This document shows positions 18,800 to 46,292 of a DNA stretch of 64,000 nt, piece after piece; position 1 is the first letter of the stretch; each line of letters opens with the position of its first letter. This DNA comes from an uncultured Lachnospiraceae bacterium (GTDB taxonomy: Bacteria; Bacillota; Clostridia; Christensenellales; UBA1242): NCBI GenBank assembly GCA_964594865.1, contig CAZQMZ010000005.1, forward strand, positions 8,521 through 72,520. Reading direction: 5' to 3'. The translations under genes were made by a program, and so were the position numbers. The notes under the pieces were generated by a model. It was not told where the DNA came from. It was given only the letters and a program-made list of their open reading frames with translations, and searched no databases.

Positions 18800-19062
18800 A
18801 AGGAAATGCGATGACGGAGAAAAGTAGCATATTCACTTGTTTTCCAGAGAGGTAAATCGTGGCTGAAAGTTTACCATCAAAAATATGTGAAAGAACACTC
18901 AGGAGCAGTTTTTTCGAAAAATTATTTTAGTAGGGAAAACCGGGATTGCCCGTTACAGCAAAATTGAGAGGCAGTTTTACTGCAAGTTAGGTGGCACCGC
19001 GAATCATTCGTCCTAACACTGTTGACAAAAAGTCAAGTGTTAATGACGAGTGACTTTTTTGT
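18800..19062 (+). ncRNA. Canonical transcriptional T-box riboswitch, Asn (AAC) specifier
   Basis: Promoter TTGACA-17-TATAAT (18766-18794); GCGATGA K-turn, AGTA loop E, AGAGA bulge, GCTGAA loop, AAC at 18894-18896 before ACTC, T-box AGGTGGCACCGCG (18989-19001), terminator plus T-run. Confidence 0.92.
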
Positions 19063-45467: not shown

Positions 45468-45504
45468 ATTTTTTCTCCTTTTAAATTGCTTTCGCATAGA
45501 AAAT

Positions 45505-45642
45505 AAAAAAGCCCTATGCACCATTTGCATAGGGGCGACTGTTAAACCGCTGTTCCACCCTATTTCGTGAAAACTCACCTCATTGAATGTCTTTACGCCG
45601 ACACGCGTTCGCTGTTGGAGTTGCCAATTCCGTCATCGCTAT
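45505..45642 (-). ncRNA. Transcriptional T-box riboswitch (Gly) with drastically shortened 5' domain
   Basis: Promoter TTGACA-18-TATAAT (45676-45647); GCGAUGACGGAAUUGGCAACUCC; antiterminator UAGGG-UGGAACA-GCG...CGC-CCCUA; terminator GCCCUAUGCA/UGCAUAGGGC plus U6. Confidence 0.88.
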
Positions 45643-45779
45643 CTTTATTATACTTTAAGAAACAAAATTTTGTCAAGTAATTTTTTTCGTAAACCAAACA
45701 AAAAAATTAAAAAATTCGCAAAATAAGTATTGATTTATTTCTAAAATTGTTGTATAATCAAAAAATCAAGGAGAAAAAA

Positions 45780-46292
45780 ATGGAAAAACAAGAAAAAAAA
45801 GAAATTTCAGTAGCAAGAAAATTTAACAATTTAATTGCGCCAATTCAAGACTCCAATAACGGATCTTTAAGGATGTTTGCTGCGGAGATAAAAACTTTTG
45901 GATACACTTCTCATGAGAAAAAGGGAAATCATGATATCTATTACAACATCATAAAAAAGTACGACGAAAATTATCAGCCAGAGCGATTGTTTCAAGCACT
46001 CTCTTTTTCTAAAGAAGGAAACCGATTTATTATTTCTTTGGATAAATATAACATCGGTTTTGGAGGGCAAAAAACATTAAGATCAAAACAAGTGTTGACA
46101 GCAGTGAAAGAAAAGGAAGGGTATTATTGTTCATATGACATTTCAACATACAGAAAAAATGTTGGAACGGCAAAAATAGTGACCAAGACAGAGCGCACTC
46201 TCACTTTTCCAATCGACAAAGACAAAAAAGTTGGAGAAGTAAACCTTCGCTTAACAAAATTTGAAACTGACAAAAATGGAAGAGTGTTATAA
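45780..46292 (+). CDS. Hypothetical basic protein, solitary transcription unit
   Basis: Own TG-TATAAT promoter, AAGGAG RBS, bidirectional terminator 46291-46320. Confidence 0.7.
   Translation: MEKQEKKEISVARKFNNLIAPIQDSNNGSLRMFAAEIKTFGYTSHEKKGNHDIYYNIIKKYDENYQPERLFQALSFSKEGNRFIISLDKYNIGFGGQKTLRSKQVLTAVKEKEGYYCSYDISTYRKNVGTAKIVTKTERTLTFPIDKDKKVGEVNLRLTKFETDKNGRVL

Follow-up and report, generated by a model that had tools for sequence, protein, structure and literature searches.

T-box riboswitches have been divided into 4 classes by Suddala et al. 2023 (PMC10482949). Class I combines a long Stem I with a Stem II; class II is specific for glycine, its Stem I being long and its Stem II replaced by a linker; class III comprises translational ileS leaders with a short Stem I, an apical codon and a required Stem II; and class IV has a Stem I of intermediate length (PMC10482949). 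A 2024 survey of glycyl T-boxes reported other oddities, always with a long Stem I (PMC11404447). Transcriptional T-boxes are said to need a platform that contacts the tRNA elbow, in order to catch the tRNA quickly during transcription, and where Stem I is truncated, hardly any tRNA is bound unless Stem II is present (PMC7583486). Glycine T-boxes are thought to tolerate the loss of Stem II owing to the GGC/GCC codon-anticodon duplex. For the Stem IIA/B pseudoknot, whose role has been named as a question for study, it has been proposed that the discriminator-facing side positions the purines located 5' of Stem III (PMC7583486).

The window analysed here, meaning the whole stretch of 64,000 nucleotides, belongs to a metagenome-derived assembly of 0.94 Mb in 25 contigs that is rated complete. 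An initial annotation had read the leader of its glyS gene as a glycine T-box in which an ultrashort Stem I is coupled to a transcription terminator, and had called this an unusual class. Anatomy and covariation support that reading: the leader is very probably a glycine T-box riboswitch that acts by transcription attenuation and whose decoding half is strongly reduced, and the published scheme of 4 classes contains no such combination (PMC10482949).

Anatomy of the glyS leader

The glyS leader is 140 nt long and lies downstream of its promoter on the minus strand (Table 1), with the RNA sequence AGCGAUGACGGAAUUGGCAACUCCAACAGCGAACGCGUGUCGGCGUAAAGACAUUCAAUGAGGUGAGUUUUCACGAAAUAGGGUGGAACAGCGGUUUAACAGUCGCCCCUAUGCAAAUGGUGCAUAGGGCUUUUUU followed by the Shine-Dalgarno sequence and the ATG of a gene whose product matches NF003211 at 633 bits (cut-off 312). 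The promoter proposed initially is indeed perfect, its 2 boxes agreeing with the consensus at 12 of 12 positions, and its -10 box ends 11 nt upstream of the U in UGA, the commonest spacing across 78 leaders of the genus, which places the start of the transcript at the base of Stem I. The promoter adjoins Stem I in most leaders of the genus. A search of sequencing runs with the leader sequence returned 4 DNA runs only, with a 0.04 share of words, and no RNA runs. The intergenic region also contains a divergent promoter-like sequence on the plus strand, TTGATT-17-TATAAT (45730-45758), adjoined by an ORF starting at about 45780 (region 45730-46292).

Table 1. Features of the glyS leader and related elements, with positions counted along the window.
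Feature	Position	Strand	Details
Sigma-70-type promoter	45647..45676	-	-35 TTGACA 45676-45671; 18-nt spacer; -10 TATAAT 45652-45647
Ultrashort Stem I	45611..45639	-	29 nt
Basal helix P0	45639-45638 with 45612-45611	-	GC with GC
K-turn strands	45637-45633; 45616-45613	-	5' GAUGA; 3' AACA
P1	45631-45629 with 45619-45617	-	GGA with UCC, 3 bp
Apical loop	45628-45620	-	AUUGGCAAC, 9 nt
Specifier	45623..45625	-	GGC (glycine); U at -1 (45626), A at +1 (45622)
Stem IIA/B-type pseudoknot	45589..45607	-	
Helix IIA	45607-45605 with 45598-45596	-	CGC with GCG
Helix IIB	45602-45600 with 45591-45589	-	GUC with GAC; loop 3 UAAA
Purine-rich linker	45588-45579	-	AUUCAAUGAG; AAUGA(A)G motif conserved
Stem III	45578-45567	-	GUGA-GUUU-UCAC
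T-box sequence and antiterminator	45530..45562	-	A1 UAGGG/CCCUA; bulge UGGAACA (7 nt); A2 GCGGUU/AGUCGC
UGGA of bulge	45557-45554	-	
Intrinsic terminator	45500..45534	-	9-bp stem CCCUAUGCA/UGCAUAGGG 45534-45512; U-run to 45500
Shine-Dalgarno sequence	45481-45475	-	AAAGGAG
glyS, dimeric glycine-tRNA ligase	ATG 45467, stop 44073	-	464 aa
Asn T-box of the window, class I	18802-19018		

As the initial annotation had noted, the leader opens with GCGAUGACGGA (45639-45629), the same letters with which the Asn T-box begins at 18808, and AUU-GGC-AAC-UCC follows immediately. Counted between the G of GCGAUGA and the U of UGGAACA, the distance amounts to exactly 82 nt, whereas the Asn T-box has 184 nt there. 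The 5' strand of the kink-turn (K-turn), GAUGA, is canonical; for the 3' strand, 66 of the 78 genus leaders have NGA and 8 have NNCA, among them the AACA of the window copy, whose kink may on this sequence differ from a standard K-turn. No gene for a K-turn-binding protein of the L7Ae family was found in the source genome. The specifier of the 78 leaders is GGC or GGA only, both of which are glycine codons. It sits in the terminal loop, the AGUA/GAA S-turn motifs of an internal Specifier Loop being absent, and the 29 nt of Stem I contain no tRNA-elbow platform (AG bulge plus distal loop). There is no space for a longer Stem I, because the promoter adjoins its 5' side and the pseudoknot begins 3 nt past its 3' side. 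Neither a Stem II helix nor its S-turn was found, Stem I and IIA being separated by at most about 4 unpaired nucleotides in the 78 leaders and by GAA (45610-45608) only in the window copy. The other T-boxes of the genome retain a long Stem I with platform motifs, which indicates that the shortening is specific to the glycine leader. Some leaders of the genus reach 160-170 nt, and their insertions are found only inside Stem III, with Stem I and Stem II no longer than elsewhere.

In the discriminator, AAAUAGGGUGGAACAGCG matches the Rfam T-box model with a posterior probability near 1 and GGGUGGAACAGCG is invariant across the genus. The bulge ends in ACA, not ACC, and the pair above it is G-C instead of the usual G-U. 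Across the genus the discriminator is UGGAACA-GCG...CGC-CCC, and short leaders of other lineages retain ACC and CGU.

The fit of UGGA to a tRNA-Gly ending in U73-CCA, proposed from the window sequence, holds for the genome's own tRNA-Gly(GCC), whose 3' end is ...CCCGC-U-CCA. The anticodon loop of this tRNA, UUGCCAA, is moreover perfectly complementary to UUGGCAA of the apical loop, with duplex energies from -2.6 kcal/mol for the 3 codon-anticodon pairs to -9.1 kcal/mol for a full loop-loop interaction. No covariation between the specifier flanks and the tRNA was demonstrable, as UUGCCAA is identical in all 30 tRNA-Gly(GCC) genes of the genus, even in the genome whose specifier loop is AGUGGCGU; a tRNA loop that is invariant in 30 genomes permits no covariation, and pairing past the codon is therefore something that we infer. 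Genomes with a GGA specifier still have tRNA-Gly(GCC). Over all contigs of the source genome, ARAGORN detected 32 tRNA genes, including tRNA-Gly(GCC) and tRNA-Gly(CCC), and found no tRNA-Gly(UCC) gene; GGA is the commonest glycine codon of this genome (24 per 1000), and undetected tRNA genes probably lie in unassembled rRNA/tRNA clusters. The codon CGG is rare in it (0.7 per 1000), yet present in frame.

The antiterminator and the U-tailed terminator are both intact, in line with the initial annotation, and the 5' arm of the terminator shares CCCUA with the 3' strand of A1. By computed folding the terminator reaches -13.3 kcal/mol and the antiterminator -6.0 kcal/mol, so that the terminator is the predicted default fold of the leader and the antiterminator, as in T-boxes generally, must depend on uncharged tRNA for its stability.

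Occurrence in the genus, covariation and competing readings

Leaders of relatives were taken from the DNA upstream of glyS, and a covariance model, R1, was built from 20 short leaders of the genus. With R1, short leaders receive 87-123 bits, while ordinary T-boxes do not exceed 29 bits. The model detects the short leader in 140 of the genus's 154 species genomes, and in 100 of the 103 that are of high quality; these genomes are metagenome assemblies of uncultured gut Clostridia, from rabbit, mouse, rumen and reindeer guts among others. No leader is present in G002 (L008) and G019 (L028), two members of the genus, indicating that the switch has been lost at least occasionally; in one of the two, glyS directly follows an upstream coding sequence, whose 3' end, judged by eye, we take to encode an ABC-ATPase-like C-terminus. 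In the wider order, a related short leader was found only in one sister genus of the same family, and the other families either lack a leader or have canonical glycine T-boxes, 165-175 nt in length, whose Stem I is long. R1 matches of 36-49 bits elsewhere in the order were rejected as the 3' halves of ordinary thrS, pheS and proS T-boxes.

The general T-box model of Rfam (RF00230) gives the glyS leader 32.5 bits against a threshold of 93 (local E = 1.3e-5), and within the window only the Asn T-box (139 bits) passes. The standard model does not align fully: 10 nt stand for 82 positions of distal Stem I and Stem II is placed at low posterior probability, whereas its IIA/F-box region is aligned to the pseudoknot stretch at high posterior probability.

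For covariation, leaders were parsed by hand with fixed anchors, requiring P1 pairing and the inner basal pairs and permitting 4 or 5 nt in loop 3, Stem III was aligned by its own pairing, and pairs were counted on an N-padded structural alignment; since all these sequences come from one genus, some of the changes counted below are not independent of one another. Over the 20 full leaders, pairing is seen in 96.3% of the cells compared with 84% after shuffling (none of 500 shuffles reaches 96.3%), 21 pairs show changes on both sides, and registers that were slid pair at only 30-43%. P1 is paired in 100% of cases, and its 3 pairs all have changes on both sides in the 20 leaders as well as in 75 (6, 4 and 14 of the 75 distinct 5' halves, per pair), with variants such as GGA/UCC, GGG/CCC, AGA/UCU, AAG/CUU and others. 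These compensatory changes bear out the first of 2 alternatives offered initially, in which GGC occupies the apical loop of a GGA/UCC hairpin. The inner two P0 pairs covary too among the 75 distinct 5' halves. Helix IIA (CGC/GCG) is invariant in 75 distinct leaders; IIB is paired in all 75, with both-side changes at its 3 pairs in 2, 7 and 2 sequences (GUC/GAC, GCC/GGC, GCU/AGC, CUC/GAG and AUC/GAU were seen). All pairs of Stem III covary in the 20 leaders, in which A1 and A2 are always paired.

Thermodynamic prediction gives another picture, since RNAfold on the single sequence returned an unrelated fold, with a non-significant z-score of -1.13 for the whole leader, and nearest-neighbour energies favour a minimum free-energy structure (-24.4 kcal/mol) over the proposed one (-15.6 kcal/mol).

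The main competitor of a glycine-decoding T-box is a decayed relic, in which the discriminator alone works and senses the 3' end of any uncharged U73 tRNA, or the terminator is merely leaky, and in which the hairpin no longer decodes. The loss of both platform and Stem II, a P1 of only 3 bp, a genome reduced to 0.94 Mb and the published binding data on truncated Stem I (PMC7583486) are what such decay would lead one to expect. However, a decaying hairpin would not covary, and P1 is kept by compensatory changes; moreover, in 101 of 101 parsed short leaders, several phyla included, the codon in the loop encodes glycine, the U at -1 is invariant and the +1 base is A or G. We consider this relic improbable.

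A smaller probability still, and a slight one, goes to a helix between CGAU of the K-turn 5' strand and AUUG of the loop, which would hide part of the codon, whether it were the actual structure or formed an additional off-state. It was proposed by RNAalifold on the raw MAFFT alignment, a suggestion that we rejected as the 3' side of Stem I is mis-aligned there and the helix lacks covariation. Of its cells 92% are able to pair, but the same share is expected by shuffling (92.1%, with all 500 shuffles attaining the observed value), no both-side changes occur in 75 leaders, and the pairing follows from the conserved bases of the K-turn and the loop.

Translational control, or a short Stem I that is only an assembly deletion, is very unlikely. 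The short-Stem-I T-boxes described so far do act on translation (PMC10482949), and the genome is a metagenome assembly in 25 contigs. Nevertheless, the antiterminator faces competition from a G+C-rich 9-bp hairpin followed by a U-run, and the Shine-Dalgarno sequence is unpaired and lies 19 nt past the U-run, outside the switch helices, an arrangement that does not correspond to a class III-type sequestrator. Furthermore, the leader recurs upstream of glyS with the same length and layout in 140 of 154 independently assembled species genomes, so it is neither a chance match nor an assembly artefact, and the check for a deletion found none.

Finally, the second initial alternative, with a rearranged Stem I (GAA/UUC plus AACUC/GAGUU) that would hold GGC in a bulge on its 5' side, and with AGCGA and GGCGUAAA as relict T-loop motifs, can practically be set aside: although the window sequence taken alone offers the complementary segments, GAGUU belongs to Stem III of the window copy only and is absent from relatives, where nearly every Stem III sequence differs while its self-pairing persists, and GGCGUAAA is made up of the 3' IIA strand and loop 3 of the covarying pseudoknot, which the first reading had overlooked.

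Relation to published classes and proposed mechanism

The glyS leader fits none of the 4 published classes, as it unites a Stem I of class III type, the glycine specificity and the Stem II loss of class II, a pseudoknot as in classes I and III, and a terminator. A full-text literature search found no paper describing this design. With class II (Bacillus subtilis glyQS, Geobacillus kaustophilus glyQ) it shares the glycine specificity, GGC followed by a purine, UGGA for U73, the missing Stem II S-turn helix, a Stem III with flanking purines, and the antiterminator/terminator pair ahead of a GlyRS gene. The Stem I of class II, however, measures about 90-100 nt, presents the codon in an internal Specifier Loop and bears a distal double-T-loop elbow platform, whereas that of the glyS leader measures 29 nt, presents it apically and has no platform. 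Class II also has a single-stranded linker where the glyS leader has a covarying IIA/B pseudoknot, and a discriminator with ACC and G-U where the glyS leader has ACA and G-C.

The short platform-less Stem I, the apical codon and the IIA/B pseudoknot are shared with class III ileS leaders (Nocardia farcinica, Mycobacterium tuberculosis, M. smegmatis). In those leaders, by contrast, the S-turn of Stem II clamps the codon-anticodon duplex, the loop has 5-6 nt, the amino acid is Ile and the Shine-Dalgarno sequence is sequestered, while the glyS leader has no Stem II, a loop of 8-9 nt, a glycine codon and an intrinsic terminator. Finally, class I (the B. subtilis tyrS type and the Asn T-box of the window) resembles it in the identical opening GCGAUGACGGA, in matching Stem III and discriminator, and in the same pseudoknot design, with a 3-bp IIA, a IIB formed from the loop and GCGUAAA resembling the F-box, but class I has a Stem II with S-turn and a long Stem I equipped with AGUA/GAA, an AG bulge and a distal loop, none of which the glyS leader contains.

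We consider the leader a real and probably functional glycine T-box outside the published classes, distinguished above all by a pseudoknot that persists although Stem II is gone. In the mechanism that we propose, transcription starts at the base of Stem I, where a kink-turn-like element sits on the 2-bp basal helix, and the 3-bp helix with its 8-9-nt apical loop would offer GGC to the anticodon of tRNA-Gly(GCC). The UCCA end of uncharged tRNA-Gly would then pair with the UGGA bulge and stabilise the antiterminator, and RNA polymerase would read into glyS, a tRNA-dependent readthrough. The strong G-C codon-anticodon duplex, to which a pair between the invariant U at -1 and A37, or still further pairs, may be added, would make the 2 lost tRNA contacts dispensable; the argument that this duplex compensates for an absent Stem II may hold for the absent platform as well. 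Without Stem II, the pseudoknot would act as a hub placing the linker and the discriminator, and a covarying pseudoknot in such a leader fits the idea of purine positioning (PMC7583486). Against this mechanism, a 3-bp helix is marginal alone.

What the covariation and the occurrence data indicate is that a leader without platform or Stem II, and with a terminator, is maintained by selection in about 140 species. Tentatively, and with slightly less confidence than we would give to an even call, we suggest that it represents a fifth natural T-box architecture, a co-transcriptional sensor working by an apical-loop codon (perhaps 4-7 pairs) and a discriminator, without elbow contact or Stem II clamp, in which the pseudoknot would have a job independent of Stem II, for example placing the linker purines or the discriminator. 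Such an architecture would contradict both the stated need for an elbow platform and that for Stem II where Stem I is truncated. If functional, it would be the smallest known co-transcriptional tRNA sensor, with about 115 nt from Stem I to antiterminator, and it tests how little RNA suffices to sense uncharged tRNA co-transcriptionally. It is also a natural construct that separates the IIA/B pseudoknot from Stem II, making the role of the former testable.

Reduced leaders in other lineages

A pattern scan was run on one genome per species; the matches listed give presence, not counts, and include chance matches such as those in Pseudomonas. Among the matches listed, the combination of K-turn, 3-bp helix and apical loop is present in metagenome-assembled genomes (MAGs) of uncultured Bacilli/'Tenericutes', in high-GC Clostridia (including Ca. 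Ventricola) and in Patescibacteria. These reduced glycine leaders resemble the glyS leader of the window in K-turn, 3-bp helix and a loop of the form N-U-U/G-GG(C/A)-A, often identical to AUUGGCAAC, and in their normal discriminator, but most of them have a plain linker or a hairpin and no pseudoknot. The literature yielded no description of the reduced glycine leaders in Bacilli, high-GC Clostridia or Patescibacteria. At 32.5 bits, Rfam-based annotation misses the glyS leader, so the regulation of glyS goes unannotated in these gut Clostridia, as well as in similar Bacilli and Patescibacteria.

In 2 Patescibacteria MAGs, T-box-like leaders with a short Stem I, an apical GGC and a UGGA bulge (L128:4198-4312 and L152:1661-1779) precede glyA (Pfam SHMT, 200-204 bits), not glyS. 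The sister genus mentioned above has a short glyS leader (L082:1501-1622) with the same K-turn and the apical GGC loop CUGGCAA, in which an A/U-rich hairpin, GCUUUUUUU/AAAAAAAGC, takes the place of the IIA/B pseudoknot and the bulge is UGGACCC. In an uncultured Clostridia MAG (L155:2122-2250), an extra perfect 6-bp hairpin, GAUAUU-GAAAA-GAUAUC, lies between Stem I and a pseudoknot of the form CGC..CCU..GCG UAAA AGG; this hairpin, in which no S-turn motif occurs, may be a remnant of Stem II or a newly arisen one.

One genome of the genus, G059, contains a second glyS copy with a different short leader on a contig of 2.7 kb (L223:1-395), which features a GCAA/UUGC helix, the loop AGUGGCGAC, 2 further hairpins and ACCACG in the T-box sequence. 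Given the tiny contig, this second copy may be contamination from another lineage. In the source genome itself, a T-box with a long Stem I and ACC (Thr) at the codon position (L003:1501-1692, C2:12517-12708) has the whole of Stem II deleted in the Rfam alignment and a small hairpin instead, which would be a Stem II-less layout outside glycine.
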